Shown: positions 3,811-55,636 of the stretch, piece by piece
Layout of the letters: the number at the start of each line of letters is the position of its first letter
Numbering within the stretch: the stretch's first letter is position 1
IMG/VR virus record: IMGVR_UViG_3300027156_000002
DNA from: a virus
Taxonomy: Duplodnaviria > Heunggongvirae > Uroviricota > Caudoviricetes
Direction: 5' to 3' (one strand)
DNA length: 64,000 nt
The notes under the pieces: generated by a model
Database searches by the model: none
Told to the model about the DNA's origin: nothing
What the model saw: the letters and a program-made list of their open reading frames with translations, nothing else
Program-made: the position numbers and the translations under genes

Positions 3811-4629
3811 TTATGTAATCCTCTGTTGTAGATATTGTAAGGTATCATTATCATTAAAATACTTACCCTCAAAACACTTCACTGTAATTATATTTCCAGC
3901 TGTTGATGTCAGAAACATTGCATCAGATGTTTCAGCAAACCATGGTAGGATATTACCATACTCAAACCAAATACCATTTCTATCGCATAAGGATTTAACT
4001 AATTCCATCACAGTACCCTTAAGACAGTTCGTGGCAGGTGCGTACACCTTTCCACCTCGAATAAACCCAACATTAAATCCTGGACCCTCAGTAATAAGTC
4101 CACCATGGTCTAATAACACAGCAGTATCATATCCACGATCGATTGCTTCCCACTGTGCAAGGTTTAAATCATTCCAAGCAAAGTTCTTCATCGTTTGATC
4201 AATAGATGTATTTCTTTTTTGCTTCGCTAAGCAAACTGTAGCTGTATTTTCTTTATTGAACCCATAGTAGGGTTTGGTATAGATGAAGAGATTCGGTTTA
4301 CAGTTGGCTAAATCTCTTGGGTTACCAGAAGTAGGTATACCTCTAGTCAAACCGATCCAAACTAATAGATCGTCAGTCGGTGCCATAGCTACCAATGTTT
4401 GAATAACTATCTCGATGTCGTTATCAGAGTACTCAACAGGGATTCTCCATCCCTGAGAACTGCGGATGAATCTACTCAGGTGTGCATTTAGGTTTTCAAT
4501 TTCACCATTCCTCACTGCAAGCACATCATAAGTTGCATCACAATGAATTAAGCCAAGATCTAAAACAGAAACTGTTAGGTCTTTGACTTTACAATACTTA
4601 CCATTTTTCCAAGCAGGATAATCAAGCAC
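3811..4629 (-). CDS. class IV PLP-dependent aminotransferase (branched-chain/D-amino acid aminotransferase or ADC lyase family)
   Basis: 272 aa. ITEGPGFNVGF-type motif (E-G-x-x-x-N-x-F) and an overall BCAT-like pattern. Confidence 0.65.
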   Translation of the reverse strand: MLDYPAWKNGKYCKVKDLTVSVLDLGLIHCDATYDVLAVRNGEIENLNAHLSRFIRSSQGWRIPVEYSDNDIEIVIQTLVAMAPTDDLLVWIGLTRGIPTSGNPRDLANCKPNLFIYTKPYYGFNKENTATVCLAKQKRNTSIDQTMKNFAWNDLNLAQWEAIDRGYDTAVLLDHGGLITEGPGFNVGFIRGGKVYAPATNCLKGTVMELVKSLCDRNGIWFEYGNILPWFAETSDAMFLTSTAGNIITVKCFEGKYFNDNDTLQYLQQRIT

Positions 4630-12464: not shown

Positions 12465-13604
12465 TTATCTTAATGGCATTCTCGGTGGTTTTTCTGGTGG
12501 AAGTTGTATAGAAATATTATCAGTTGTCTCAACATTAGATTCTAATGTTATACGTTTTTCACGTTGTCCAAAAGTTCCATACTCTTCTACTTTTGGAGTA
12601 GTTTCTGGAATAATAACATCTACTTCTTTATTCATCTCAGCCATTTGTTCTGGCTCTAGTTCTTCAGGTTTCTTTTTACCAAAGAAATCTTCGATAATCT
12701 TCTTAGATTCCATTGGCAATGGACTCTTTTTAAAGAACATATCTGACCACTTAGGTTTATCTGGTTCGGGTTCTAATTCATCATTATCTTTAAGAACTAT
12801 AGACTGAATTACATCATTACCTTCTGAATCAGTTTTAATTACTACTGACTTTACACTCTCATCTTTTCGCATTTGCCAGTTGGCAGCAACTAGCATTAGA
12901 ACTGCAAGTGGATCAAATACAATAACAATCATGATAATAACCCAGCGGACTGCTTTCTCAAGCAAATCCGTTTCTGGATTATCACCGTAAAGTAATGCTG
13001 CTATGTATTTTATTGGACCGACTTCGGCTTCGACTTTACGGACTTCGCTGGCGATTGGCGCACGCTCTTCGTTGAGTTTTGCGATCTTGGTTTGCGAGGT
13101 GCCGATTTCTTGGAGGATTCTGGCTCTGTCTTTTTGCTGGTTTCTACGGATGGAGATGGCTCGCTCTGCTCCGCTGGCTTCTGTGGTTCTGGCGATGGTT
13201 TGATCAACTTGAGAATCGAGTTGAGAAAGTTCTTTACGATTTGCATTTATGTTTTCCTTTTCTGTTTTAATTTTTTCATCTATTAGTGCAAGTTTTGCTT
13301 GCACATCACCTGATGGGATTGCTTGGTCCAAGTGTGCTTTACTTAGGTAACCAAAAATTCCCATAGAAGTTAATAGCATCAATACAACCAAAGCGAATGT
13401 AAAGTATGTCTTCATCAACACTGGAATTTCTTTCCAAGTTCGATAAAGCCATGATGCTACTACAAGTTTCGATGCTTCTAGCAACGAACCCATAATTAAA
13501 ATAGGAATAACAGCTGCTGCGAAAATTGCCACCAGACCCATAATTGAGTAGTAAGCTGCGCAAGCTGATAATGCCAATGCTGTTATGAATAATAGGTATT
13601 TCAT
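12465..13604 (-). CDS. membrane protein with coiled-coil region
   Basis: 379 aa. Multiple N-terminal TM helices, a central coiled coil and a C-terminal Pro-rich tail. Confidence 0.5.
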   Translation of the reverse strand: MKYLLFITALALSACAAYYSIMGLVAIFAAAVIPILIMGSLLEASKLVVASWLYRTWKEIPVLMKTYFTFALVVLMLLTSMGIFGYLSKAHLDQAIPSGDVQAKLALIDEKIKTEKENINANRKELSQLDSQVDQTIARTTEASGAERAISIRRNQQKDRARILQEIGTSQTKIAKLNEERAPIASEVRKVEAEVGPIKYIAALLYGDNPETDLLEKAVRWVIIMIVIVFDPLAVLMLVAANWQMRKDESVKSVVIKTDSEGNDVIQSIVLKDNDELEPEPDKPKWSDMFFKKSPLPMESKKIIEDFFGKKKPEELEPEQMAEMNKEVDVIIPETTPKVEEYGTFGQREKRITLESNVETTDNISIQLPPEKPPRMPLR

Positions 13605-14026: not shown

Positions 14027-14175
14027 TATTCTTCATCGTCTAGATCCTCTTCTTCGTAGATGTCAGCAGAACAAACTGGGCAATATACCACATCTTCTGT
14101 TGAATGGTCATCTCCTTTGAGAACGATCTTTCCTCGTGCTCCACATGATTCACATTCAAAATATTTAGTCGACAT
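14027..14175 (-). CDS. small zinc-ribbon protein (49 aa; CxxC...CxxC), not in ORF track
   Basis: Hand-translated MSTKYFECESCGARGKIVLKGDDHSTEDVVYCPVCSADIYEEEDLDDEE. Exact ends are within 3 nt. Confidence 0.35.
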
Positions 14176-14890
14176 TTTTTACCCTTGCTAATCCTAATGT
14201 ATTAAAAATCCTATACCACATCCAACCGATATCAAACTCCAATGATTTTCTACTTAATTTTGGGTTTGCTGGCTCGCCATGGTGATTGTTATGCAGTTCT
14301 TCACCACCAATAATAATCCCCCATGGAACTATATTAGTTGATTTATCCTTACTATCATAGTTTCTATAACCATAATAGTGCCCCAAACCATTTATAACAC
14401 CTGCAGCCCAGAATGGAATCCAGATCATCTGAACACCCCAAACCCAGAGACCCCACCAGCCAAAGAATAAACAATCAAGAATTAACATTACCACAATTCC
14501 AGCATATGGAAATTTAGAGTAGACATTTTTCTCGACCCAATCGTCTGGCGTACCGACACCATATTTAGCAATCATTTCTTTGTCTTTGGAGGATTCAACA
14601 TAACAGAAAACACCAGCGAATAAAATATACCAAATACCGAAAATATGTGGGGTATGTGGGTCACCTTCTTTGTCAGAGTTCTGATGGTGTTTGCGATGTA
14701 TGGCAACCCATTCTTTAGTTACCATACCAGTTGTCAACCACAACCAGAATCTCATAAAGTGGGAAAGACCTGGATGAAAGTCAATACCTCTGTGAGTTTG
14801 CCCTCGATGTAAAAACAAAGTAACACAAATGATGGTGATGTGGGTCATCACCAATAGGTACAAGAATGCCATCAAGCAGCCTTGCCCCAA
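14165..14890 (-). CDS. membrane fatty-acid (acyl-lipid) desaturase
   Basis: 241 aa. Histidine boxes HRGQTH, HRKHH and HNNHH within TM segments. Confidence 0.75.
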   Translation of the reverse strand: MGQGCLMAFLYLLVMTHITIICVTLFLHRGQTHRGIDFHPGLSHFMRFWLWLTTGMVTKEWVAIHRKHHQNSDKEGDPHTPHIFGIWYILFAGVFCYVESSKDKEMIAKYGVGTPDDWVEKNVYSKFPYAGIVVMLILDCLFFGWWGLWVWGVQMIWIPFWAAGVINGLGHYYGYRNYDSKDKSTNIVPWGIIIGGEELHNNHHGEPANPKLSRKSLEFDIGWMWYRIFNTLGLARVKNVD

Positions 14891-27856: not shown

Positions 27857-28188
27857 GCATCTACTATTACATCGATTCTAACTTTATTTGTTTTAACAAC
27901 AGATTCGCAGAATACTTTGTTCTTGGATTCTCCTGCTTTCTTGATAGCTTCTTGCAATTTTCCAATAGCTTCTGCTTGTGGGTCAGATCTTAAAACAGCA
28001 TAAACTTTTAATCTCTCGATATACTCGTCTGCGTTTTGGAACATTAACTGATTACCACATTCTAATTTATCAACTGCTATTTTGGTATCAACTAAACGAC
28101 CAAACATTTCTGGGTCGTGTGGTCTTGGTAGGATAACAGAACATGCAGATAAAGAAACTACGGCAAGAATCAGTATTAACTTTTTCAT
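27841..28188 (-). CDS. lipoprotein
   Basis: 115 aa. Signal peptide plus lipobox LSAC. Confidence 0.45.
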   Translation of the reverse strand: MKKLILILAVVSLSACSVILPRPHDPEMFGRLVDTKIAVDKLECGNQLMFQNADEYIERLKVYAVLRSDPQAEAIGKLQEAIKKAGESKNKVFCESVVKTNKVRIDVIVDAWKGR

Positions 28189-29231
28189 ACAGCTTTACCT
28201 GCACTCTTTAATGAACTTAATGGATCAGATTGAGAGTCGAACTTATGGGCTTGAGAAGCAAACTTCTTACCATTGTGATAGAAGTGAACAGAGCCACCAC
28301 TGGATTTAACTGTAATATTCTTATGGTCTTTAAGGATATGTTCGTGGTCTTCGCTTGGCTTACTTGTATGGTGTTGAACACCCTTAGCAGTTTGATATGT
28401 TGTATGCTTAATAAAACTGTGCCCCTTTTCTTCTGCAGGAGTCTTATGTGCATGTAGAACTTCACGAATATGTTTAACTACATGGTCGTGGTTATTGTTG
28501 TCTAAGTGGTGCTGCAACTCAGCAGCATGATCGTGAGCAACTTTATGTAAAAGTTCTTTGTTGCGTTTCTTAATATCATCATGCAACTTAGGATCTGCTT
28601 TTGCAATTTCTTTACGCTGGTCTTTATTCTTACCTTTTAATTTAGGATGAGCAGCAAGTATTGCGTCTTGATGATCTTTATAATGCTGTCTGGCTTTTGA
28701 ACCACCAGATTCCATACCAAGACTTGAAGACGGAATGTTTTTACTGGACTTATCGCTGACTTTTAAACTTACGCCATGATGATGTTCTTTACCTGTCTTT
28801 GGATGCTTGGTAGTTACATAAACGTCAGAAGAATCTTCTTTCTGTGTTGCTTTGTGACCAGTTACCTTTTCTGTATCTCCAGGTTTTGAAGTCCAATGCA
28901 CTGCTGAAATCTTATGCCCTTTGTGAGTAGAATCGATATGTGCCTTAATATGATTGGCAGCACTCTCTGCATTTTTAGCGATCTTATCATAATCTTTAGG
29001 GTGAATTTGTTTCTTTAATCTCTCGTGTGCTTGCTCAGGTGTTTCATCGTTTTCATTCTTGTGTTTCTCTAGATGCTTACCACCATTTAAATGTTTGCCG
29101 ACTAATAGTTCGTGCAACACACCTTTAGTGTTATTGGAAACACCACCCTCTTTGGAAGCATCATCAGCTGCTTCGATAAGCAATTCTTCGTAGTATTGTT
29201 CTTCTGCTAAGAACGATTTAAAATTTTTCAT
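28185..29231 (-). CDS. His/Lys-rich capsid-targeting-sequence-bearing internal-head-protein candidate
   Basis: 348 aa. N-terminus MKNFKSFLAE followed by EQ. Extreme His and Lys content (HHHG, HDHAAELQHHLDNNNHDH). Confidence 0.5.
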   Translation of the reverse strand: MKNFKSFLAEEQYYEELLIEAADDASKEGGVSNNTKGVLHELLVGKHLNGGKHLEKHKNENDETPEQAHERLKKQIHPKDYDKIAKNAESAANHIKAHIDSTHKGHKISAVHWTSKPGDTEKVTGHKATQKEDSSDVYVTTKHPKTGKEHHHGVSLKVSDKSSKNIPSSSLGMESGGSKARQHYKDHQDAILAAHPKLKGKNKDQRKEIAKADPKLHDDIKKRNKELLHKVAHDHAAELQHHLDNNNHDHVVKHIREVLHAHKTPAEEKGHSFIKHTTYQTAKGVQHHTSKPSEDHEHILKDHKNITVKSSGGSVHFYHNGKKFASQAHKFDSQSDPLSSLKSAGKAV

Positions 29232-29845
29232 TACTTTACACCCATATGTTTACGTAAGTCGTGATACAATTCTGTTTTATGTTCTGGTTTCATCTGTGAC
29301 GATAGATGAGATTCAAACTTTTTCTGTTCACCAGCTGCAGCGTGACCACGAAGTTTAGTTCCAGAAATACCTTCAGTTCCTTTTGCATTTGGATCACGTT
29401 TACCTGCATTGTGGAACTTTATACTCTTGAAATTGTAATGTCCATGTGGACCTTCTTTTCCATTATACTTTTTAATCAATTCATGCATTGGTTTACGATC
29501 ATCGCCACCAGCAAAGTGTAAATGAGTAACACCTTTTTTGTGCAACTCAGCAGCATGATGAAGAACAGTAGGATGTTCTTTATCAGCTACCTTAACATTG
29601 GTTCCAGGAAATGCTCTCTCTGCATGTTTCTTTTTAACATCAGGTGGTAATGGATTAGATCCGTCTTTAGTTGCATGCGAACCTGATAATACCAATGTAT
29701 GTTCTGCATTATGTTTCTTGGCAGTATCATGCATATGGGTTACGAGTTTCTCATGACCAGCAGTTGGAGGATTCATTCGACCAAAAGCAAGAACATGATG
29801 AACGTCTTTTTCTGATTCTACAATATAAGATTTAAATGTCTTCAT
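29231..29845 (-). CDS. capsid-targeting-sequence-bearing HxGH nucleotidyltransferase-like protein (paralog of 25505..27385 N-domain)
   Basis: 204 aa. N-terminus MKTFKSYIVE followed by SE. AFGRMNPPTAGHEKLV motif. His-rich. Confidence 0.5.
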   Translation of the reverse strand: MKTFKSYIVESEKDVHHVLAFGRMNPPTAGHEKLVTHMHDTAKKHNAEHTLVLSGSHATKDGSNPLPPDVKKKHAERAFPGTNVKVADKEHPTVLHHAAELHKKGVTHLHFAGGDDRKPMHELIKKYNGKEGPHGHYNFKSIKFHNAGKRDPNAKGTEGISGTKLRGHAAAGEQKKFESHLSSQMKPEHKTELYHDLRKHMGVK

Positions 29846-31035
29846 TTTCTTGGCTTTAATAAGTTGGCTTTACTGAATTCTGCACGATTAACAATTTTAG
29901 ATGGTTCTTGTTTACCTTTGTGCGTATAATTTATAACATATCCCTCAGGATCTGTTTTCTTATCTCCAATATGATGCTCAAGACCGCCAGTATGCTGGTT
30001 TAAATTCTTAACTAAAAGGTTTTTACCTTGCTGTAAATGCTGATGCATTTTAAATAGATTCTCATAATGCTCTTTATTTTTCTCAACATGCGCAGCGTGA
30101 CCAGAACCAAGATTACGCTGAGCAGTTTGTCCCTTCTCAGACTTTAGTTTAGACGCTTTCTTTTCATAAACATCCTGAATATGTTTAATGAATCCTTTTG
30201 CGTTTGGTTTTGTATCTTTGCGAACTGTTTGATTGATGTAAGTTCCCAAATGTCCAGCATCACCTTTGTGTTCTGGATGGATCGCACCATACATCTTATC
30301 GCCGTGTTTATCATGAATATCTTTTGCAGCATTCATGTGGCTTTGGAATCTTTTCTGATCTGCTTGAGTATATTTAACTTTGCTAGTATCATGCTCGGCA
30401 CCAGCAAGATGCACATCTTTGTGTTGACCAAAACTTTTCATATCAGGATGAGGAGTTGCTTTCATCGAAGCAAAATCTTTACCCTCATATTTTTGGTGAA
30501 CAACTAACCCAAATTTAGATTGGGCTGTTTTCTTGGCTTCATCGCCATGCGCAGTATACTTAATTGTATTTGGTGTATAAGAAGCAGTTCCCTTCTTCTC
30601 ATCATATTTAACATCACCCTCAGAGTGCATAACGTCACCCTGATATACACCTTGCTTAGGTGCAACCTTTGGTAGATGTTTTAGAGCATGCTTTAATTTT
30701 TCTGCGAGACCTGGAGCATGACCATGGTTCTTGTCAATGTCCTTAGCAGTATAGTTGATTTTTGGGTTTTTATTGAACGCTGACTTGGAAGCAACAAAGA
30801 ATTTTCCAGTTTCTGGATGCTTTCCAAAAACCAATGATGGCGATCCGTCATATTTCATGGTCAGATCGCTGGATTGTTTCCCAGCTTTAATGTGTTCATG
30901 TCCATGGTTTAGTGCACCAAGAGCATGTTCGAACCCTGAAGAACCATGGAATAGAGGGCGATCCTCTACATGATGGATGTGCTTCAGTTTCTCTTCTTCG
31001 GTTTCTTCTTTAAGGAATGTTTGGAACGACTTCAT
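29842..31035 (-). CDS. capsid-targeting-sequence-bearing protein with KxDG nucleotidyltransferase (ligase/capping-type) motif
   Basis: Start re-assigned to the 2nd ATG (MKSFQTFLKE followed by ETEE), which aligns residue-by-residue with T4 MKTYQEFIAE. TMKYDGSPSLVF resembles ligase motif I. Confidence 0.5.
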   Translation of the reverse strand: MKSFQTFLKEETEEEKLKHIHHVEDRPLFHGSSGFEHALGALNHGHEHIKAGKQSSDLTMKYDGSPSLVFGKHPETGKFFVASKSAFNKNPKINYTAKDIDKNHGHAPGLAEKLKHALKHLPKVAPKQGVYQGDVMHSEGDVKYDEKKGTASYTPNTIKYTAHGDEAKKTAQSKFGLVVHQKYEGKDFASMKATPHPDMKSFGQHKDVHLAGAEHDTSKVKYTQADQKRFQSHMNAAKDIHDKHGDKMYGAIHPEHKGDAGHLGTYINQTVRKDTKPNAKGFIKHIQDVYEKKASKLKSEKGQTAQRNLGSGHAAHVEKNKEHYENLFKMHQHLQQGKNLLVKNLNQHTGGLEHHIGDKKTDPEGYVINYTHKGKQEPSKIVNRAEFSKANLLKPRK

Positions 31036-31049
31036 TTTACCCATCTATA

Positions 31050-31994: not shown

Positions 31995-32762
31995 CTATTT
32001 AGGTCTGCGCTGTCTACGAATAACTTTCTCGTATTTGCGATCCCACTTACCGATCTGGTCAATGATCTTTCTTGGAGATTCATTGTTTCGGAAGTCGTAG
32101 TCGAATGTCTTGAGGAAATAGTGGAGGGTTTTTGAATCGCGAGATTTCTTGCAGCGATTTAGTAGCGTATTAATATCTACGTTTGGTCTTAGTACTTTGA
32201 AGTCTAGGTATACACAATGAGCATATGCTTGTATCTCATCGAACTCAGAAAGGTACTTTCTTTCTGCGTCTTTTTTGGCTATACCAACTTTCTTATAAGG
32301 AACAACATAATTGCTCCATGTATCATCACGTCTATCATATTGCATGAAGTGAATTATCTCATGCATCAAAGTTTGCAATAAACGAAACTTAAACTTTTCC
32401 CAAACTTGGTCATTGAAATTAAATGTATCAAATTTGGTTGTATGTATTATTAAAAGTGACTGTCTATTTTCTGGATCATACTCACCACCAATACAAACAT
32501 ACTTCTCAGTCCAACTAGCCTTAGACTTCTCTTCTCTCCATACAACTTTAGTTCGCCACTTTTTAAGATAGTTGGCTAAACCTTTTGAATCGTTTCTATA
32601 CTTGTCTAGATCCTTGAGGACTTTTGCTGGAACAAGTTTAGCCCTAAATGGACGCTCATAAAAATTGAGCATGTCCATCCAGTCGGAGTTATAATTTTCC
32701 AGGAACTTCATATTCAGCCCTATTTGATAAAAGGAACTGGCTCCTGCATACCCCTTTCCCAA
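31995..32762 (-). CDS. HExxH zinc-metallopeptidase-like protein
   Basis: 255 aa. HEIIHFMQYD motif. Confidence 0.45.
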   Translation of the reverse strand: MGKGYAGASSFYQIGLNMKFLENYNSDWMDMLNFYERPFRAKLVPAKVLKDLDKYRNDSKGLANYLKKWRTKVVWREEKSKASWTEKYVCIGGEYDPENRQSLLIIHTTKFDTFNFNDQVWEKFKFRLLQTLMHEIIHFMQYDRRDDTWSNYVVPYKKVGIAKKDAERKYLSEFDEIQAYAHCVYLDFKVLRPNVDINTLLNRCKKSRDSKTLHYFLKTFDYDFRNNESPRKIIDQIGKWDRKYEKVIRRQRRPK

Positions 32763-33172
32763 AAATACAACTCAACAGTTTGGGGTAACAGTTTGCGCAT
32801 CCCTCTCAGTACTTTTTTGTTGTCTTCATAATGTCGTTGTATACCCAATTCAAGCACCCTTTCGGACTTAAATCGGACTACATTTTCAACAGTTCTGGTA
32901 TTATCTAGAAGATGGAAGGAAATTACTCTTCCACCATAATATTTATTCAGCCAGTCTTTTGTGATTGTATGTATTCTTGGCTCTCGTTTTCTTGCAGAAA
33001 TGGCGTAAAATTGGGTCTCAACTGGCTCTATAAGTTTCTCGGCATTCTCGTACCAATCGTACAAAAAGTCCTTCCTAGCCTTTCTTTGAACCCCATTCAT
33101 TTTACCCCACTTCATTTCGGATGGCGGTGGCTGAGCAGCCAGAACCCCATCGATGTCATAAGAAACTATCAT
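32720..33172 (-). CDS. HAD-superfamily 5'(3')-deoxyribonucleotidase-like protein
   Basis: 150 aa. N-terminal DIDGVL motif (DxDG[TV]) of HAD phosphatases. Confidence 0.5.
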   Translation of the reverse strand: MIVSYDIDGVLAAQPPPSEMKWGKMNGVQRKARKDFLYDWYENAEKLIEPVETQFYAISARKREPRIHTITKDWLNKYYGGRVISFHLLDNTRTVENVVRFKSERVLELGIQRHYEDNKKVLRGMRKLLPQTVELYFWERGMQEPVPFIK

Positions 33173-34176
33173 AGGATTAATGGATCAACCTTTCCAGTCT
33201 TTTCTACAACAGCTTTCTGCTTTTCCCAGATATTTCTACGGACTTCCTCTGGGAATGACGCAAACTTATCCAACTCCATTTTGGTATCTGTAGGGAAACA
33301 CCAATTCAAACCATTGTTACCTTTCGGTGCGCAGACAGGAATACCTGCATAAAGAGCATGATATGCACGACCAGTTCTCCAACCAGACTTCTTATGTTTA
33401 TCGTCATAGACAGCTAGACAGCCATAGAACTGTTGATAGAACTTTCTACGATCTCTTTGCTGTGGGTTTGGTAGAATCTCAAGTGCTTCAAAATCATCCC
33501 ATTCAGCTTCTTTACCTGCAACTTGAAGACAACGTGAAGAAGTAAACTCTTTGAAGTATTTGGTTCTGCCATTTGGTCTACCAATGTAAACCACCTTCTC
33601 AATATTACCTGGATGAAATTCAGCAAACTCCATACCAGATGCCATGGGTAAATCAACAGTTGTAGTTCCGATAGGACACTTCAGGATAGTTGCAACTTCA
33701 TTACACTCAGTCGCATTGGCTGCAATAGTCCAACGTGACCAATCTTCATCAGGTAACAACTCCCAAAGGAATGGAAGATCTGGATCGTCATTCAAAAAGA
33801 TGATGCGACCCTTATGTGCTTTAATCATCTCAACAGTTTTATCCCAGTACTTCTGATAGAACTGCAAATTAGTTCCACCAAACTCAAGCATGAGAACATC
33901 ACAATCTTGATATGTGTCAAATGTTTCAAACCCATCATCTTTGGTTGCATCAGTTGCTTCTGATAGTGGAATGATTCGATGACCAAAATCAAGCATGTTC
34001 TTGAACAGAGCAACACGTTTCTCTACCCATGCTCCACGAACACCATTCTCTTTGTTGGTCAAACCAATCTTACCAGAAACTCTGCGATAACCAATTTTAG
34101 TTCCAGTATTGCTAGAGTTCTTTGAATAGAACCACTCTAACAACCTTTCTTCACCTAGAAACTCATGTAGTGACAT
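33169..34176 (-). CDS. glycosyltransferase-like protein with recalled similarity to T4 DNA beta-glucosyltransferase C-terminal half
   Basis: 335 aa. The VVYIGRPNGRTKYFKEF...YGCLAVYDDKHKKSGWRTGRAYHALYAGIPV blocks resemble BGT DVIYGGSFRSGQRE...IGDKNY..TLRVWETMASD. This is recall-based and not computed. Confidence 0.4.
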   Translation of the reverse strand: MSLHEFLGEERLLEWFYSKNSSNTGTKIGYRRVSGKIGLTNKENGVRGAWVEKRVALFKNMLDFGHRIIPLSEATDATKDDGFETFDTYQDCDVLMLEFGGTNLQFYQKYWDKTVEMIKAHKGRIIFLNDDPDLPFLWELLPDEDWSRWTIAANATECNEVATILKCPIGTTTVDLPMASGMEFAEFHPGNIEKVVYIGRPNGRTKYFKEFTSSRCLQVAGKEAEWDDFEALEILPNPQQRDRRKFYQQFYGCLAVYDDKHKKSGWRTGRAYHALYAGIPVCAPKGNNGLNWCFPTDTKMELDKFASFPEEVRRNIWEKQKAVVEKTGKVDPLIL

Positions 34177-34184
34177 AATAAACC

Positions 34185-35486
34185 TTACGCAAAAAATTCA
34201 TCAAGTGATCCAGACTTCATTGATTCTGGATGATATTTAATTAGGATTTCATCTCCAAGTTTTTCACGACAATAGTCGTACCACTCGTCAGAAGTCCACA
34301 TACCTTCGGAAACACCATTCCAAAGTTTACGTTGCATCGGATGTTCAGGATTCTTGCGACGTTGTTCAACGAAGTCATAACGACAGTTCTCATATTCCCA
34401 AGAACCCAACTCAAGCATCTTCTCACGGAAGTAGCAAACCAAACTGATACGCTCAGAACCTTCTTCACAAACGATAGGAGTGTTGCCATGCATAACATCA
34501 TGGTTGTTAATCAATAGCAAGTCGCCTGGACGTGGATTAACAGCAACACGATACTCAGGTGCAATCAAATAACCACCACTGTAACGTCCATCATTTGACA
34601 AAGTTAGTAGATTTGAAAGACCACTATTTAAATCGCCAACGTCATAGTGAGCAGCAGTTCTGAATGTTTTATTCACAGTAACAGTTGTGAATGGAGTTCC
34701 AGGAACTAGGAAACGAGGATCAACTTGTCTCGCTGCTTTCATCTGTGCTTCATAACGCTGTGGTAGTAGATCCCTAAAACCATTTGACAATGTTTGTAGG
34801 AATGGGTAAGCAAGTGCAAACTTCTCAGGATTCTTGGCAGTGTAAGATGTTGCACGACCATAAGGAATGCGAGGATAACGATCGAACCAACCTGCGATGC
34901 CAGAATAAACTGAGTTAGCGTAAGTGGTTGCACAAATCAATTCATCAGCAACAAAGTTTGCTTCTTTAATTTGTTCTTGTCGTGGAAGTGTACGCACTTT
35001 CTCAACCCACTGATCGAAATTAAAATTGGTTGACTTAGTTCTTTCAATCGACCAAACATTATTGCGATTAGATGGAGTAGGTGGTTTACCCTTATAGCGT
35101 TTGATAATATCTTCTACAGGATCTCCTGCAAGACCAGAGTATGGGTCAAGGAAGTATTCAACCATCTCAGATTCATACTCAGTAACCCATTCACGATTAC
35201 CCAACTTCTCACCACGTGGACCTGCTGCTGCGCCACGATTCTGTGTTTCAGTTGCAGCTTCACGAAGACCTGCATACGCTTGGTCTTGTTGTTCTTTGGT
35301 GAAGAAGTTCTTACGGAACTTCAATACAATCCTGTCTTCATTGATAGGATCTTCACCATAAGGTGCTGGCATATAAACATCAGTATCTTCTTCGATAAGA
35401 TGGTCGTAATGATTCTCGTCAACGAATTGACCAATCAAATGTTTACAATCAATCTTTTTATCAGCGACAATAACTTTAACTGTCAT
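34185..35486 (-). CDS. Fe(II)/2-oxoglutarate dioxygenase (P4H/AlkB-type 2OG-FeII_Oxy C-terminal domain) with large N-terminal domain
   Basis: 433 aa. HYDVGD (HxD)...LTLSNDG..GGYL...PRPGDLLLINNHDVMHGNTP (distal His)...ERISLVCYF (RxS) read directly. Confidence 0.65.
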   Translation of the reverse strand: MTVKVIVADKKIDCKHLIGQFVDENHYDHLIEEDTDVYMPAPYGEDPINEDRIVLKFRKNFFTKEQQDQAYAGLREAATETQNRGAAAGPRGEKLGNREWVTEYESEMVEYFLDPYSGLAGDPVEDIIKRYKGKPPTPSNRNNVWSIERTKSTNFNFDQWVEKVRTLPRQEQIKEANFVADELICATTYANSVYSGIAGWFDRYPRIPYGRATSYTAKNPEKFALAYPFLQTLSNGFRDLLPQRYEAQMKAARQVDPRFLVPGTPFTTVTVNKTFRTAAHYDVGDLNSGLSNLLTLSNDGRYSGGYLIAPEYRVAVNPRPGDLLLINNHDVMHGNTPIVCEEGSERISLVCYFREKMLELGSWEYENCRYDFVEQRRKNPEHPMQRKLWNGVSEGMWTSDEWYDYCREKLGDEILIKYHPESMKSGSLDEFFA

Positions 35487-35495
35487 TTCTCTCTC

Positions 35496-36902
35496 CTAAA
35501 ACTTAAATCCACTAAACTCGTTCTCACTATGTAGTCGTTTACCAAAATCTGATTTATCAAACAATGGTTCGTCTTTTTCTTTAGTTCCAACATCTGATAG
35601 CCCTGCTTGCGCAGAAACTTCAACATCATATAACTTCATTTTAGATCTATCGATACCAACGACAAACCTCTTGTAGAAATTTGGGTCGTTGTAACGATTC
35701 TTCAACTGCTTAACGATAATCTGATTCAACTGCTCAAGTTCTTCATTACTCACAAGTGCGAACATGAAATCAGCTGTCGCAGGGAGTCCAAAAGATTCTG
35801 AAGTGTCCTCAAGTCCTGGGTCTGAGTTTGTAAATCCAGATCGAGTTGTTTGAGTTGCACTAACAATAGGTACGTTGTATTCAACTGCCAGTCCCCTTAG
35901 TTCTTCAGCGATAGCCTTAATATATGTATAAGAGTTTACACCATGGGTTTGTTTCATTCTAGATGAAGCACAGATATTCAGATAGTCAATAAAGATAATA
36001 TCTGGAGCAAACTCTCTCTTAAGTTTTAACTCTTCCAACAAAGCACGGAAGTGACCAGCATGAGCACCTGCAGTTGGATACTCTTTGACAATCAGTGTTC
36101 CCTGTGTTTTTGTAGCAATCTTCTGTAGACGTGAATCAAAGATATCCCGATCAACAACTTTCAATTCATCCATGGTTAGGTTAAGTAAGTTTGCATCGAT
36201 ACGTTCAGCGATACGTTCTTCAGCCATCTCCATTGTTATGTATAAAACATTTTTACCCTGCATAAGAACACTGGCTCCAACGTGACACATAAACAACGAT
36301 TTACCAACACCTGTTCCTGCCAAAGCAATGTTCAAAGTTTTCTTACTGAGTCCACCTTTGGTGATTTTGTTGAACATCTCAAGATCGAAAGCAATTTTCT
36401 CTTCCACCCTGTGATAAAAATCATACCTATCATTAGCATCCTGAATGTAATCATGACCAACATGATTATCAAAGCAAACACCAAGTGCTTCACTAAGAAT
36501 AGTAGGTATCGCATCTTGTTGATGCACTTTGTCCCTACCATCGATAATTTGAATTGATTTAAGAATCGCATTATAAACTGCCCTGTCTTTACAAAACTTT
36601 TCAGTCTGACCAATCAACCATTCTTCATTAGGTTCTTTATTAGTCAACTGTTTGGCATATTCTTGGAACTCAGGAACTTCTTTGTCAGTTAGCCCTTTGA
36701 TATTGCCAATCTCAATAGCCAGAATCTCAGGTGATGCTGGCTTATTATACTGCTCAAAAAACTCAACTAAGATTTTAGCGATAGCACTTTCTTTACGATC
36801 TGCAAAATACTCAGTCTTTAAATGAGGAACTGCCTTACGACAGAACTCCTCATTGTGAATCAGGTTCGATAGGATCGCCTGTTCTATTCTCATCAACACC
36901 AC
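35496..36902 (-). CDS. 41: replicative DNA helicase (DnaB family, T4 gp41)
   Basis: 468 aa. Walker A GTGVGKS and collinear similarity to T4 gp41 recalled. Confidence 0.9.
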   Translation of the reverse strand: MVLMRIEQAILSNLIHNEEFCRKAVPHLKTEYFADRKESAIAKILVEFFEQYNKPASPEILAIEIGNIKGLTDKEVPEFQEYAKQLTNKEPNEEWLIGQTEKFCKDRAVYNAILKSIQIIDGRDKVHQQDAIPTILSEALGVCFDNHVGHDYIQDANDRYDFYHRVEEKIAFDLEMFNKITKGGLSKKTLNIALAGTGVGKSLFMCHVGASVLMQGKNVLYITMEMAEERIAERIDANLLNLTMDELKVVDRDIFDSRLQKIATKTQGTLIVKEYPTAGAHAGHFRALLEELKLKREFAPDIIFIDYLNICASSRMKQTHGVNSYTYIKAIAEELRGLAVEYNVPIVSATQTTRSGFTNSDPGLEDTSESFGLPATADFMFALVSNEELEQLNQIIVKQLKNRYNDPNFYKRFVVGIDRSKMKLYDVEVSAQAGLSDVGTKEKDEPLFDKSDFGKRLHSENEFSGFKF

Positions 36903-37191
36903 CTGTGTACGTTAAATTATTATTCGCAATACCTTCATGAATAAGATCTTGAAGGATATCACCTATGTATTTCTCAAAGGGTTTCATGTCAGTGATAACC
37001 TTATCGTTGTAGTCAAGAATCTCATATTCAAAACTAATCTTCAAGGAATCGTTGGCTTCATCTTCTTCGAAACCAACTTTACCATAAGAATAAATTATAC
37101 CTTCATATGCACCATCTGTCAACTTTATCGCATCATGTCCATTACTGCGATTTTGCACAGTAACATAATTGCGCATATTATTCTTCATCAT
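36850..37191 (-). CDS. hypothetical protein at the T4 gene-40 position (between uvsX and 41)
   Basis: About 112-124 aa. Start ambiguous (several Met). Overlaps the 41 start by about 50 nt. Confidence 0.35.
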   Translation of the reverse strand: MMKNNMRNYVTVQNRSNGHDAIKLTDGAYEGIIYSYGKVGFEEDEANDSLKISFEYEILDYNDKVITDMKPFEKYIGDILQDLIHEGIANNNLTYTGGVDENRTGDPIEPDSQ

Positions 37192-38245
37192 CAATCGCAG
37201 CAAGTTCTGCATCGATATCTTCATCTTTAAGGATATCTGTTGAACCTACCTGATATTTGTTTTTAACAAACTCAATGAAAGACTTTTGCATAAGTACTGG
37301 CATCCAGAAGTCTTTAGTATCTGTATCTTTCAGGCGATACTTCTTATCTTCAATAACACCATCTGCATCTACTTTACTATACCAACCATTACTTGGCTTG
37401 ACAACATGCCCAGACTCGAGTGCGATATCAAGTAAGCCAGACCAACGGCTAATACCCCCATCATGATATACAGTAACAGGAATCTTAGATTTTTCACGCA
37501 CATAACGAGATTTCTCCACATTGATAATAAAATTATATCCAACAACTTCAGTCCCTTCTTTTTCTTGTTGACGACCAAGAATGTATACATTATCGGCAGA
37601 GTACATGGCACCAGTTCCACCACCGACAATAGGTTTGGGGAACATACCGATCTCCATATATGTATGATTAACAACAACCAATGGAATATCTTTAAGGTTC
37701 AGGTGTGGTGTAATCATACGGAACAATGACTTCATCTGTTTGGCACGACTCATATCAGCAACAGATTTGCCATCAAGTGCATCTTCTACTTCCTTCTTAG
37801 ACGCAAGATTACCAATAGAATCAATAACAATAATAAGATGGTCGCCACGTTCAACTCCTTGTAGCTGTTGCATGATGTCAAACTTCAACTGCTCTACGTC
37901 AGTAAGTGGTGTATGGATAACACGCTCGGTATCAATACCGAAAGAATCAAAGTATGCTTGAGGTGTGCCGAACTCTGAGTCGTAGAAAAGCAACGCAGCA
38001 TCGGGGTACTTGTCCATATAAGACTTAGCCATTAGCAAACTGAATGCTGTCTTGAAGTGTTTACTTGGTCCAGCCCACATTGTGATACCTGGAGTCAAAC
38101 CACCATCAAGACGACCAGACAATGCAATATTGATTGCTGGGACAGTGGTAGGAATCATATCCTTCTTTGTGAAGAACTTTGATTGTGATAGAATAGCAGA
38201 ATCTTTAATCGTACTATTCTTGCGAATTTTATCTAGTATACTCAT
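37178..38245 (-). CDS. uvsX: RecA-like recombinase UvsX
   Basis: 355 aa. RecA core with Walker A GPSKHFKT and synteny with 41. Confidence 0.9.
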   Translation of the reverse strand: MSILDKIRKNSTIKDSAILSQSKFFTKKDMIPTTVPAINIALSGRLDGGLTPGITMWAGPSKHFKTAFSLLMAKSYMDKYPDAALLFYDSEFGTPQAYFDSFGIDTERVIHTPLTDVEQLKFDIMQQLQGVERGDHLIIVIDSIGNLASKKEVEDALDGKSVADMSRAKQMKSLFRMITPHLNLKDIPLVVVNHTYMEIGMFPKPIVGGGTGAMYSADNVYILGRQQEKEGTEVVGYNFIINVEKSRYVREKSKIPVTVYHDGGISRWSGLLDIALESGHVVKPSNGWYSKVDADGVIEDKKYRLKDTDTKDFWMPVLMQKSFIEFVKNKYQVGSTDILKDEDIDAELAAIDDEE

Positions 38246-38297: not shown

Positions 38298-38894
38298 TTA
38301 TTTTGGGTTAGATTTGTGATGTGGCACATCGAATACAAAGGTTACACGAACTTCATTGCCAACATTTTCAGTTCCATGTTGCAATTTATTATTGAACCAC
38401 AACAAAGTTCCTGGCTCTACTATGTATTCCTCATCTCCAACCATATATTTGTATCTACCTGCGATGGAGAGATGGTAACGATCTCTGGTCTGATAATAAC
38501 TACCGATGTCTATATGTTTGCCGACAGAACCACCAACTGGCAATGACAAGAATCCACAACGTGAATGGTCGTGGAAGTTTCGTTTCATAAATCTAACAAT
38601 TTCTGTGTGTCTGTTATACGCAGGTGTTTTAATGCAATACTCAGTGTCACCAACATATTGCGTTTCATTCTCAACACCACCAATAACTAATTGCAAAACA
38701 CCTGCATTAATTTGTGGGAAGTCAAATTCTTTCTGGACTGTTGAAGCACCTTTCATCTGACCTTCAGAGTTCCAATCATCTTTGTAAAGTTTTAATTGAG
38801 CAAGAATCTTTGATACGTTGATTCCTGTTTTAATCACTTTAATATTATCCAAAGAAATCCTCCAATGATGACTTGGCTTCAACATTCCAACCAA
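38298..38894 (-). CDS. cupin-fold Asp/Asn beta-hydroxylase-like oxygenase
   Basis: 198 aa. HIDIG...H motifs of a double-stranded beta-helix. Confidence 0.4.
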   Translation of the reverse strand: MVGMLKPSHHWRISLDNIKVIKTGINVSKILAQLKLYKDDWNSEGQMKGASTVQKEFDFPQINAGVLQLVIGGVENETQYVGDTEYCIKTPAYNRHTEIVRFMKRNFHDHSRCGFLSLPVGGSVGKHIDIGSYYQTRDRYHLSIAGRYKYMVGDEEYIVEPGTLLWFNNKLQHGTENVGNEVRVTFVFDVPHHKSNPK

Positions 38895-50784: not shown

Positions 50785-51438
50785 TCAAAAATACCTATCA
50801 TTGGGTGTATAGGTATCTACATCAACAACCCCAAAATTAAACGAAAAAGAAATCCTATCACCTTCAGATTTATTTTCTCTTACGGCATGCATAATATTTG
50901 CAGGTGCTAAAACTAACGCACCTTCAACTGGTGTAACGTAATGTTTAACTGCAGTTATATTATTTCTGTTATGGAAATATTTGGCTGCATAATTAAAATA
51001 TGTACTAATATCTGGATGCAAATAAACCAGATCGCCAGATTCTAAAGGTACTTTAGGGTAGTATGATCCAGCTAATACATTCCCTGGATGTGGATGGCTT
51101 TCTAGATTAGATCCTGGAGGATATATATTGAACCAACAAGAATCCAAAACCAAATTAACTGTTGGTCTTGGATTTAACTCATTAAAACAAGTCTTTGCAT
51201 TTTCAAAAATTAAACCAATTAACTTTTTAGTTTCTGGGAATGCTAAAAAGTCTTTTTTAGTTAAATTATAACTCTTCCACTTTAAAGAATATTTACTATG
51301 TCCCTCTGGGTTTCTATGCTCAGGATCTTTACTTCTTAGTGTATAAGCATGGCTAGATATTTTTTCATTATCTATTGGCAGATCTTTCCACTGCCAAATA
51401 GGATAGGTGAATATATCTGTTCGAGTCATTGATCTCAC
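50785..51438 (-). CDS. hypothetical protein (possible 2OG-Fe(II) oxygenase-like) between 44 and 45
   Basis: 217 aa. SHPHPG...IMHAV motif-level hint only. Confidence 0.35.
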   Translation of the reverse strand: MRSMTRTDIFTYPIWQWKDLPIDNEKISSHAYTLRSKDPEHRNPEGHSKYSLKWKSYNLTKKDFLAFPETKKLIGLIFENAKTCFNELNPRPTVNLVLDSCWFNIYPPGSNLESHPHPGNVLAGSYYPKVPLESGDLVYLHPDISTYFNYAAKYFHNRNNITAVKHYVTPVEGALVLAPANIMHAVRENKSEGDRISFSFNFGVVDVDTYTPNDRYF

Positions 51439-54463: not shown

Positions 54464-55636
54464 TTAAAATGGGATTTCCTGAGCAGGTTCTTGCACAACA
54501 GGTGCTTCCACTGCTACAGGTTCTGGTTGCGGGTTTGCAACTTTATCATACAGGTCAATAAATGCAGCTTTCGTTGCAGCATCAAAACGATTGCAACAAA
54601 GTTGGACTGCTTTCTCCCTGTTCTTGAAGATTGCAAATGCACGAACGATATGGATCATACGACGAGTCGTAATTGTTTCATCCACACCACCATCCTCGAA
54701 AGTGCGACGGATAGCATCAGCCCACTTTACAAGGGTCTCTGCAAACTCTTCGTCAATACACGAATAAGTTTCCATGAGATTCTTGATAATCTTAATCTCA
54801 ACTTTTGCAGCTGGGTATTCCTGTTCAAACGTAACAGCGAATCGCTCCAAGAATGCTTCGTTCAATACGTTGGTACCGATATAACGACCATCGTCACTAC
54901 CCTTACCCTTAGTGTTCGCAGTTGCAATAACATTGAATCCAGGAGCAGGAACAATCATCTCATTCTTGAGTTTGAAATAGTAAGGTTTACCCTCGAGAAT
55001 CGGTTGCAAGCACAACAGAGTGTTGGCAGAGCCAGCATCAATTTCGTCAAGCAACAGAGTAGTACCAGTACGCATAGCGATTAGAACTGGTCCTTCAACA
55101 ATTTCTACGTTACCATTCTCCAATGTTTTGGAGCCGATAAGTTGTTCTTCGTCAGTCATCATGTTTAGGTTAACACGAATGAGTGGCTTTTTGTATTTCG
55201 CACAGATCTGCTCAACCATGGTAGACTTACCGTTACCAGTTGGACCAGAAATATATGCAGGGTAGAAAATACCAGACTTGATAATAACTTCCAAGTCGGA
55301 GTAGCTACCGAAAGGGACGAAGTTTGAATCCTTCTTAGGAATCAATGATGCAGTGTTTGTGTAATCAACCACGAAAGACTCTACAGGTTCAGATTTAGTT
55401 TTTACCACAGTATTTCCAACTACAACAGTAGAAGGTTTACCACCATTAATTGAATATAAACCACGACCAACAACATCTTGCATTAGCCACAATGGGTGGT
55501 AGTCGATTTTGTTTTTGGCACGAACTTCCAGCAATTGCTTGCGTGTAACTGTACCAGTAGTTTTTGTATCAGGGAACATCTCAAAGAGTTTATCTTCGAA
55601 GAATGCTTTTTGTTGCTCAGTAATTTTTGCCATCAC
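54464..55636 (-). CDS. MoxR/CbbQ-type AAA+ ATPase (CobS-like)
   Basis: 390 aa. Walker A GPTGNGKST and Walker B LLLDEIDAG. Paired with the vWA protein upstream. Confidence 0.7.
   Translation of the reverse strand: MMAKITEQQKAFFEDKLFEMFPDTKTTGTVTRKQLLEVRAKNKIDYHPLWLMQDVVGRGLYSINGGKPSTVVVGNTVVKTKSEPVESFVVDYTNTASLIPKKDSNFVPFGSYSDLEVIIKSGIFYPAYISGPTGNGKSTMVEQICAKYKKPLIRVNLNMMTDEEQLIGSKTLENGNVEIVEGPVLIAMRTGTTLLLDEIDAGSANTLLCLQPILEGKPYYFKLKNEMIVPAPGFNVIATANTKGKGSDDGRYIGTNVLNEAFLERFAVTFEQEYPAAKVEIKIIKNLMETYSCIDEEFAETLVKWADAIRRTFEDGGVDETITTRRMIHIVRAFAIFKNREKAVQLCCNRFDAATKAAFIDLYDKVANPQPEPVAVEAPVVQEPAQEIPF

Follow-up and report, generated by a model that had tools for sequence, protein, structure and literature searches.

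A three-gene cassette of a freshwater T4-like phage probably directs a post-replicative, base-J-like modification of its DNA, in which thymine would be converted to 5-hydroxymethyluracil (5hmU) and then to glycosyl-5hmU; the base, the sugar and the enzymatic activity are what we infer. The cassette encodes a TET/JBP-family dioxygenase, a glycosyltransferase (GT) of GT-B fold and a HAD-superfamily phosphatase. Family membership, gene context and the published enzymology of relatives suggest that the dioxygenase hydroxylates the C5-methyl group of thymine in phage DNA, giving 5hmU. The fold of the GT and its near-obligate gene linkage suggest that this enzyme would then move a sugar from a host nucleotide-sugar onto the hydroxyl of 5hmU. 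Protection of the DNA from host nucleases is the likely benefit for the phage. The original prediction, that an oxygenase followed by a sugar transferase amounts to DNA hypermodification of the TET/JBP style, is strengthened by the Tet_JBP match of the oxygenase, by the T4 DNA beta-glucosyltransferase (BGT) fold of the GT and by the linkage of the two genes.

Organization of the Locus

The module adjoins replication genes on the minus strand of the window, the 64,000-nucleotide stretch of phage DNA analysed here. The four ORFs named in the original prediction are all present on this strand, and the same four were called by independent gene callers on metagenome contigs of 100% identity:

34185..35486, minus strand: TET/JBP-family Fe(II)/2OG 5-methylpyrimidine dioxygenase, long stand-alone form, 433 aa (Pfam, phrog and ligand alignment)
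33169..34176, minus strand: GT-B-fold glycosyltransferase with T4 beta-glucosyltransferase-like fold, 335 aa
32720..33172, minus strand: capless HAD-superfamily phosphatase, 150 aa
31995..32711, minus strand: HExxH (zincin-motif) protein, weakly SprT-like, 238 aa

The genes are packed in an operon-like manner, with gaps of 8–11 nt or, where the HAD start overlaps the GT stop codon, an overlap of 4 nt. A perfect sigma70 consensus precedes gene 41; between it and position 30834, no terminator-like site was found on the minus strand. The cassette thus appears to be cotranscribed with the replication genes. It had been placed between an internal-protein block and gene 41. Gene 41 (DnaB_C) does lie directly upstream, but the internal-protein block is unsupported: the genes at that position encode a DUF6267 protein, an HxGH nucleotidyltransferase-like protein and one unknown protein. 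The DUF6267 protein found no relatives in the PDB, and the label "internal protein" is neither upheld nor replaced for it. When the region was compared with 50,697 phage records by megablast, no match was obtained. The GT, HAD and HExxH proteins likewise gave no tblastn match in these records and are therefore known from metagenomes only.

The TET/JBP Dioxygenase

The oxygenase is a member of the TET/JBP family by sequence. It matches Pfam PF12851 (Tet_JBP) over residues 211–355 (E=3e-24, 85.5 bits against a cutoff of 34.9) and phrog_24024 (E=3e-159). The sequence strings that first drew attention to it are present (HYDVGD with H280 and D282, MHGNTP with H333, ERISLVCYF with R346), and these four residues correspond in alignment to the residues of human TET2 that bind iron and 2OG (segments HRD, LHATTP, and RISLVFY). 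The enzyme had been described as a P4H-type oxygenase, which might hydroxylate virion or host proteins for subsequent glycosylation. This proposal, which draws solely on the generic HxD...H...RxS signature of 2OG oxygenases, is scarcely credible and finds no support in the family assignment or in the relatives, all of which occur in DNA-modification contexts. The P4H label itself proved wrong, because the Pfam scan (E≤0.1) returned solely Tet_JBP and a sub-cutoff TauD match, while prolyl-hydroxylase families, including the P4H and 2OG-FeII_Oxy profiles, were unmatched.

The N-terminal region of roughly 260 residues, formerly regarded as an unrecognised fused domain, is not a separate unit. Residues 1–90 are homologous to the N-terminus of a ParB-linked phage TET/JBP protein (309 aa), whose core is 46% identical to the window oxygenase. 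The long form consists of the core, an insert (about residues 95–185) and a C-terminal extension (about 360–433). The enzyme is predicted to turn thymine in DNA into 5hmU, and indirect evidence suggests that it resembles clade-C1-type enzymes. For the oxidase on its own, clustering at 90% leaves more than 2,800 relatives. Orthologs exist in the phages Cr30, DLP6, and C48C1; the GenBank label "SNF2 DNA repair protein" on them looks mis-transferred, since there is neither a J-binding nor an SNF2 domain. A sugar theme recurs around these orthologs: in C48C1, a UDP-galactopyranose mutase is encoded two genes downstream of the TET gene, and in DLP6 a nucleotidyltransferase gene lies directly upstream of it.

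The Glycosyltransferase

The GT adopts a two-Rossmann GT-B fold that is closest to T4 BGT (CAZy GT63), with 282 of its 335 residues aligned and a lead of more than 5 Z units over other fold matches. The resemblance to BGT noticed in the original prediction is thus real, but it spans the whole protein and not the C-terminal half alone. The link is at the level of fold only, because a profile search against the PDB gave nothing other than chance interleukin-2 matches and hhalign against BGT returned a probability of 5.8%. The catalytic residue of BGT is D100, and its UDP-phosphate is bound by R191, R195, and R269. In the GT, the residues D130/D131, R200/R204, and R270 are invariant and situated in colinear motifs. 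An Asp-rich loop (FLNDDPDLPF) follows the strand 124–129 and is set against YLFTD100IRLPF of BGT in the pairwise alignment, where D131 pairs with D100. That these residues are equivalent to the catalytic ones of BGT is a tentative reading from motif inspection.

The family is small and restricted to phages (114 representatives among 1.84 billion proteins), and the window GT has no match in Pfam, PHROGs, or NCBIfam. It does not match the TET-associated glycosyltransferase family (Pfam TAGT, PF20691); another protein of Cr30 matches TAGT weakly. The 344-aa protein beside the TET of C48C1 was considered as a homolog and rejected (hhalign probability 0.4%, not significant). This protein and the window GT have a [ST]GW[RW]x[GA]R-like motif in common. 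The GT would place a sugar on the hydroxymethyl group that the dioxygenase is predicted to create, and its gene linkage to TET/JBP is what points to DNA as the acceptor.

The HAD Phosphatase and Its Linkage to the Other Genes

All four HAD motifs (DxD, S/T, K, and an acidic pair) are present in the 150-aa protein on a Rossmannoid fold. The DIDGV motif (D6, D8) noted in the original prediction is invariant, but the proposed family is not borne out: 5'(3')-deoxyribonucleotidases (NT5C) are neither a profile match nor the closest structural neighbor. The protein has no match in Pfam, PHROGs, or NCBIfam. Its closest folds are DNA/RNA 3'-phosphatases, and the C-terminal 3'-phosphatase domain of T4 polynucleotide kinase/phosphatase counts among the closest known systems.

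The three genes are tightly linked. The TET/JBP gene is situated within 3 kb of the GT gene in 77 of 80 metavirome loci, and a HAD gene follows downstream in 67 of 71. This linkage goes beyond chance: it is seen in 55 loci of the T4-like kind and 14 of the ParB type, at identities as low as about 45%, and it spans three gene orders and two phage backbones; the ParB-type backbone belongs to unrelated phages in which the oxidase is short and ParB-linked. The GT family almost never occurs without a TET/JBP neighbor, but one locus (L079) has none in the 8 kb upstream or the 6 kb downstream. Freshwater metagenomes commonly contain the cassette. The HAD protein can thus be regarded as a tightly coupled third component, a putative phosphatase.

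The oxidase alone might act on DNA, with the GT-B enzyme and the HAD protein serving a non-DNA molecule, for example as a synthase/phosphatase pair of the trehalose-6-P or sucrose-P type or in glycosylation of a host or virion component. We consider this quite improbable. The best fold match of the GT, by its wide margin, is a DNA enzyme; its near-constant position beside a DNA-base dioxygenase on unrelated backbones would be hard to explain if the two were independent; and the enzymes nearest in fold to the HAD protein work on nucleotides or the ends of polynucleotides rather than on sugar phosphates.

The preferred scheme of hydroxylation followed by glycosylation assigns no step to the HAD protein. 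It may dephosphorylate a phosphorylated sugar or another intermediate on DNA, it may repair 3'-phosphate ends left when host repair enzymes attack oxidised thymine, or it may be a nucleotidase. The near-obligate presence of this partner with a polynucleotide 3'-phosphatase-like fold has led us to consider a phosphorylated intermediate. In this three-step chemistry, which we hold to be rather unlikely, a phospho-sugar would be attached to 5hmU and then dephosphorylated on the polymer, and the insert and C-terminal extension of the oxidase would replace the ParB activator. If true, it would represent a new thymidine hypermodification, common in abundant freshwater T4-like phages. The HAD partner is the part of the cassette most likely to hide new chemistry.

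Thymine or Cytosine as Substrate

The cassette could instead act on cytosine: a C5-methyltransferase (C5-MT) elsewhere in the phage or host would provide 5mC, which the TET/JBP enzyme would oxidise to 5hmC for glycosylation by the GT. Phage TETs of clades A and B and their GTs do so (PMC8256090; bioRxiv 10.1101/2023.12.21.572611), and the nearest fold, that of T4 BGT, belongs to an enzyme acting on 5hmC. A regular-expression search for the PCQ motif of C5-methyltransferases found no ORF carrying it in the 64 kb of the window or in the 1.03 Mb drawn from 87 related loci, and the genes called over 10 kb on either side of the window are listed with no methylase Pfam family; this inspection took in about 84 kb of a genome of roughly 166 kb, which leaves room for the cytosine route. 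On the other hand, published TETs of the 5mC type have an adjacent C5-MT and those of the thymine type do not (PMC13229309). Two of the genomic contexts are, moreover, those of thymidine modification. The same GT and HAD pair is found beside ParB and a short TET/JBP, an arrangement for which thymine oxidation has been shown experimentally (PMC13229309), and the Cr30 ortholog is situated 1.7 kb from an amino-acid:DNA transferase (AADT; PF18724, E=1e-52), which belongs to thymine hypermodification machinery. A literature search on Cr30 with JBP found nothing relevant. On balance, cytosine is an unlikely substrate.

The nucleotide metabolism of the phage also speaks for thymine. Its genes include ThyX, RNR, and dCMP deaminase, so that the phage makes canonical dTTP. 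Among the window ORFs scanned, there was no gp42-type (thymidylate-synthase-family) match, and the thymidylate synthase found was ThyX.

One point against the preferred reading concerns the ParB partner. Phage thymine dioxygenases fall into a ParB-dependent clade C1 and a ParB-independent clade C2 (O'Toole 2026, PMC13229309), and some C1 members without a ParB partner were inactive on thymine and 5mC in E. coli (PMC13229309). When nine ParB proteins linked to such cassettes were run against the window by tblastn, none matched significantly (best E 0.46), and the T4-like loci likewise had no ParB within 10 kb.

Comparison with Known Systems

The cassette is a new member of the published class of phage clusters that combine a 5mYOX dioxygenase with a GT (Burke 2021, PMC8256090; Pyle 2023, bioRxiv 10.1101/2023.12.21.572611). 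In these clusters, a DNA GT likewise acts after a post-replicative dioxygenase, GT-B enzymes with predicted similarity to T4 beta-GT are among the GTs, and one contig (contig 53) carries a HAD-like domain. Mining of 5mYOX genes noted helicase, polymerase, and clamp contexts, and most 5mYOX contigs had no methyltransferase (bioRxiv 10.1101/2023.12.21.572611). In contrast to the window cassette, the characterised clusters obtain 5mC from an adjacent C5-MT, none of which was found near it. The window GT family also differs in having no Pfam/HMM annotation, and the HAD protein is stand-alone and capless, whereas the published one is a HAD/APH fusion for heptose-nucleotide synthesis.

The window oxidase resembles the thymine dioxygenases of O'Toole in its TET/JBP family, in the absence of a neighboring C5-MT, and in that GTs are frequent neighbors there. 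However, it has 433 residues as opposed to roughly 270–330, the difference being due to the insert and the C-terminal extension, and unlike the ParB-dependent enzymes it has no ParB in reach; for C1 members that lack ParB, activity was not demonstrated in that study (PMC13229309).

In T4, hmC is made before replication through the nucleotide pool by gp42 dCMP hydroxymethylase, and alpha- and beta-glucosyltransferases act on it. By contrast, the hydroxyl in the window phage would be formed on the polymer by the TET/JBP enzyme, and sequence comparison detects no relation of the GT to GT63. The chemistry predicted here is the same as that of trypanosomatid base J, where JBP1/2 convert thymine to 5hmU and JGT glycosylates it. 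However, JGT is of GT-A type and the window enzyme of GT-B type, and base J synthesis has no HAD component.

Decoration of DNA by hydroxylation of thymine and attachment of a sugar is of a kind recognised only recently. If the scheme is confirmed, some T4-like phages modify thymine after replication by the TET/JBP route, as opposed to the classic pre-replicative hmC. Of the proteins encountered in this work, the window GT comes closest to T4 BGT in structure, a finding with a bearing on the origin of the T4 glucosyltransferases. Given how common the cassette is in freshwater metagenomes and how many relatives the oxidase has, the resulting DNA modification would occur often in nature, which matters for restriction, for evasion of CRISPR, and when environmental phage DNA is sequenced. 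T4 beta-GT is reported to glucosylate 5hmU within a DNA duplex solely where the base is mispaired with G (PMC4111573). Should the window enzyme accept 5hmU in its proper pairing in a duplex, it would be a useful reagent.

The HExxH Protein

The fourth gene had been counted as a member of the module, which is not sustained by its distribution. It occurs in close relatives only, is missing where GT identity falls below about 65%, and is thus probably not part of the core. SprT-like PF10263 matches are sub-threshold in 7 of 11 homologs (best E 0.008), and the window protein reaches 12.6 bits where the cutoff is 25.6. It is probably a lineage-specific accessory neighbor.

This weak SprT-like similarity would fit a different use of the oxidase, in which the functional mark is 5hmU or its oxidation products 5fU/5caU, the GT either lacks activity or uses a different acceptor, and two neighbors mend the damage: the HAD protein would treat 3'-phosphate ends from base excision, to which its likeness to DNA/RNA 3'-phosphatases would be suited, and the HExxH protein would act on formyl-uracil DNA–protein crosslinks. 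Phage thymine dioxygenases do oxidise iteratively, and E. coli MUG excises the products (PMC13229309). We nevertheless judge this very unlikely, because the invariant Asp and Arg motifs of the GT argue for an active enzyme, most cassettes have no HExxH gene, the SprT-like score lies below its cutoff and the damage-control roles are purely conjectural.

The HExxH motif itself (MHEIIH, H117..H121) stands as predicted and is invariant in homologs; MHExxHxxQ and EIQAYAxC are invariant among the 11. The ORF had been given as 31995..32762, but the gene callers and all homologs place its start at the ATG at 32711 (238 aa). This ATG is most likely the start of the gene, and the TTG at 32762 is an unlikely one.

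A conserved TET/JBP-GT-HAD cassette

The TET/JBP-GT-HAD cassette is real and conserved, and the window in which it lies belongs to a freshwater T4-like phage. Every real gene of the window is on the minus strand; among them are those for gp41 helicase, UvsX, gp43 polymerase, DNA ligase, gp45 clamp and RNase H, as well as both RNR subunits and ThyX. Contigs from JGI and ENA freshwater metagenomes, including one of 166 kb, are 100% identical across the cassette locus; no isolated phage among 50,697 phage records is close to it at the DNA level. The four ORFs of the original prediction are present as described and are also called by independent gene finders, with one start codon revised:

34185-35486, minus strand, TET/JBP oxygenase
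33169-34176, minus strand, glycosyltransferase-like protein (GT)
32720-33172, minus strand, HAD protein
31995-32711, minus strand, HExxH protein

Gaps of 8-11 nt separate gp41 from the oxygenase, the oxygenase from GT, HAD from HExxH, and HExxH from the next gene, and the stop of GT and the start of HAD share 4 nt. A perfect TTGACA-17-TATAAT, a consensus match only, is found at 37122-37094 (minus strand), inside the end of uvsX and upstream of a small ORF (36850-37224) and gp41. It is a plausible candidate early promoter for the gp41-TET-GT-HAD run, and no minus-strand terminator-like site occurs downstream of it until about 30834.

All cassette proteins were mapped onto 80 IMG/VR loci encoding a GT homolog. 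A TET/JBP gene lies within 3 kb of GT in 77 of the 80, two of the three exceptions having no upstream sequence, and of the 71 loci whose downstream sequence is long enough, 67 have HAD. The short TETs (Tet_JBP, E = 2e-26 to 2e-6) and ParB (ParB_N, E = 3e-10 to 6e-6) were confirmed by Pfam.

Table. Gene orders around GT homologs in 80 loci
Long TET > GT > HAD (T4-like): 55 loci
ParB > short TET > GT > HAD: 9 loci
ParB > GT > HAD > short TET: 4 loci
ParB > GT > short TET: 1 locus
Long TET > GT: 7 loci, most ending soon after GT
Short TET > GT > HAD: 1 locus, ParB not detected
GT > HAD: 1 locus, without upstream sequence
GT alone: 2 loci

In three near-identical phages (loci L006, L012 and L021), which elsewhere share about 94-100% identity with the window, GT and HAD are split by an insertion of ~1.1 kb, so the pair tolerates separation. 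The insertion resembles a recently acquired moron inside the cassette; in L006 (12315-13430) it consists of a 371-aa gene that matches Sulfate_transp (PF00916). Two GT homologs of 47-55% identity (L079 8032-9045 and L066 107-1150) are situated in a different phage backbone with neither HAD nor a detectable TET/JBP gene nearby, and could reveal the action of GT by itself.

The oxygenase

Residues 211-355 match Tet_JBP (PF12851; E = 3e-24, 85.5 bits against a cutoff of 34.9), and the only other Pfam match is a sub-cutoff one to TauD; the P4H-type label originally given to this protein is thus wrong. The predicted active-site strings were all located (H280-Y-D282, H333 and R346), and phmmer against the PDB pairs FRTAAHYD, MHGNTP and RISLVCY with FCAHAHRD, LHATTP and RISLVFY of TET2. 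The match to phrog_24024 spans the entire protein, and a 90%-clustered protein collection contains over 2,800 relatives. Orthologs with 42-49% identity over at least 96% coverage are encoded by the T4-like phages DLP6 (Stenotrophomonas), Cr30 (Caulobacter) and C48C1; those of DLP6 and Cr30 are annotated as "SNF2 DNA repair protein", a label apparently carried over from JBP2 by mistake. BLASTP with a 309-aa ParB-linked phage TET/JBP protein gave 46% identity across core residues 190-366, and residues 1-175 formed another significant segment (E = 1e-6). The N-domain described as unrecognised is therefore largely family-typical, and the long form consists of the core, an insert and a ~70-aa C-terminal extension.

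The glycosyltransferase-like, HAD and HExxH proteins

GT has no match in Pfam, PHROG or NCBIfam and no relative among the 50,697 phage records. None of its 185 metagenomic homologs has a Pfam domain, and an exhaustive profile search of 1.84 billion proteins found only 114 representatives, two of the most remote of which have near-threshold Glyco_trans_1_2 matches. The AlphaFold model, from a 62-sequence alignment, has a pLDDT of 94.3 and a pTM of 0.90. Sequence-based comparison detected no relation to T4 DNA beta-glucosyltransferase (BGT), the resemblance originally proposed, and because sequence methods miss BGT, GT63 membership is not established. The invariant motifs FLNDDPDLPF, YIGRPNGR and TGRAYH are colinear with the catalytic Asp100 loop and the UDP-binding Arg motifs of BGT (sequence confirmed against PDB 1bgt), and pairwise alignment places D131 opposite BGT D100. 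By inference, the motif residues may be equivalent to the catalytic and UDP-binding residues of BGT.

The 150-aa HAD protein is a predicted capless HAD phosphatase. Its 121 homologs share invariant D6xD8GVL, S59-A-R, K102 and E116-D117-N118, corresponding to HAD motifs I-IV, and its AlphaFold model has a pLDDT of 96.9. The earlier HAD assignment was right, although deoxyribonucleotidases are not the closest subfamily.

As a neighbour of the cassette, the HExxH gene is lineage-specific, with homologs confined to the closer T4-like relatives. The TTG start at 32762 first assumed is unlikely; ATG 32711 (238 aa) is favoured because gene callers and all eleven homologs begin there, at MKF/MKY. MHExxHxxQ is invariant, as is EIQAYAxC further downstream. 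Seven of the eleven homologs have Pfam SprT-like matches, all below threshold (best E = 0.008), and a PDB profile search found similarity to botulinum toxin light chain at the level of the zincin motif alone.

Target base and downstream chemistry

The PCQ motif of C5-methyltransferases is absent from the real ORFs of the window and from all 1.03 Mb of loci, and no methylase or ParB family was found in the 10 kb past each window end. One of these flanks encodes dCMP deaminase, another 2OG oxygenase and Fe-S assembly genes, and the other the structural module. Phage TET/JBP 5-methylpyrimidine dioxygenases (5mYOXs) without a neighbouring C5-methyltransferase are thymine dioxygenases, one subclass of which requires a ParB-like activator; GTs are their commonest co-occurring domain (31%), HAD is also listed among such domains, and some clade-C1 members without a ParB partner were inactive on T and 5mC in E. 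coli (O'Toole et al., PMC13229309). The oxidase is tentatively and indirectly assigned to the C1-like enzymes. No ParB lies within reach of the T4-like cassette in the window or the T4-like loci.

The neighbours of the oxidase orthologs in isolates differ. In Cr30 (L002 10024-12161) an amino-acid:DNA transferase (PF18724, E = 1e-52) and a weak TAGT hit follow 1.7 kb downstream of the ortholog; in C48C1 (L003 8317-10349) a UDP-galactopyranose mutase lies two genes downstream and a 344-aa protein without known identity nearby; and in DLP6 (L001 5271-6962) a 563-aa NTP-transferase-domain (nucleotidyltransferase) protein is directly upstream. This suggests that the chemistry downstream of the T4-like oxidase varies among phages, and the culturable Cr30, C48C1 and DLP6 probably carry distinct thymidine hypermodifications. 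Taken together, the lack of a C5-methyltransferase, the flank content, the findings of O'Toole et al. and the isolate neighbours make conversion of T to 5hmU the favoured first step. Thymine in phage DNA would be oxidized to 5hmU and then glycosylated post-replicatively, and we lean towards a base-J-like glycosyl-5hmU as the product.

Pyle et al. (bioRxiv 10.1101/2023.12.21.572611) already described 5mYOX-dependent GTs, including GT-B enzymes with a predicted T4 beta-GT-like structure, and neighbourhoods containing helicases, polymerases, ParB and clamps, so the cassette belongs to a published class. They also reported that most 5mYOX contigs have no methyltransferase and are probably 5hmU-forming, and that an HAD/APH fusion and a cytidylyltransferase build heptose on 5hmC in one cluster. 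The published 5mYOX work that we found describes neither the present unannotated GT family, nor a near-obligate stand-alone HAD partner of GT, nor a long ParB-less oxidase in T4-like phages, nor a chemical identification of glycosylated 5hmU in phage DNA. The HAD phosphatase is the best lead toward something new.

Other genes

The supposed internal-protein block consists of three Lys/His-rich genes:

Within 28185-31044, minus strand, DUF6267 protein (E = 2e-96) containing a ligase-like K-Y-D-G string
Within 28185-31044, minus strand, 204-aa HxGH nucleotidyltransferase/cytidyltransferase-like protein (phrog_3041)
Within 28185-31044, minus strand, 348-aa protein without assigned identity

The first two are fused in other phages (phrog_455, 764 aa). 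A PDB search with the DUF6267 protein yielded no relative.

A conserved 265-320-aa protein beginning ...LFVATPMYGG..., absent from the window, is encoded after the cassette in T4-like phages that are more distantly related (L050 7798-8760, L052 11506-12303, L059 11708-12556, L067 11938-12801) and is also present in DLP6 (L001 9559-10416) and Cr30 (L002 960-1808). Its weak matches are of GT-A type (Anp1, Glycos_transf_2), and a second glycosyltransferase is a possible identity for it.

The window and its immediate surroundings contain three further cupin/2OG-type oxygenase genes:

38298-38894, minus strand, Asp_Arg_Hydrox/Cupin_2-like, between gp43 and UvsX
50785-51438, minus strand, 2OG-FeII_Oxy_5, adjoining gp45
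L088 13759-14319, past the window end, 2OG-FeII_Oxy_5

An unusual auxiliary set in the window (3811-4629, 14165-14890, 12465-13604 and 54464-55636, all minus strand) comprises a class IV aminotransferase, a fatty-acid desaturase, a tetraspanin-like membrane protein, a CbbQ/NirQ-type AAA ATPase and ferritin. A short distance past the window (L088 12167-17743), the phage encodes dCMP deaminase, peroxiredoxin, a GARS_A-domain (ATP-grasp) protein and NifU/Fe-S assembly proteins. A possible role of the iron-handling genes is to support its several Fe(II)/2OG enzymes.
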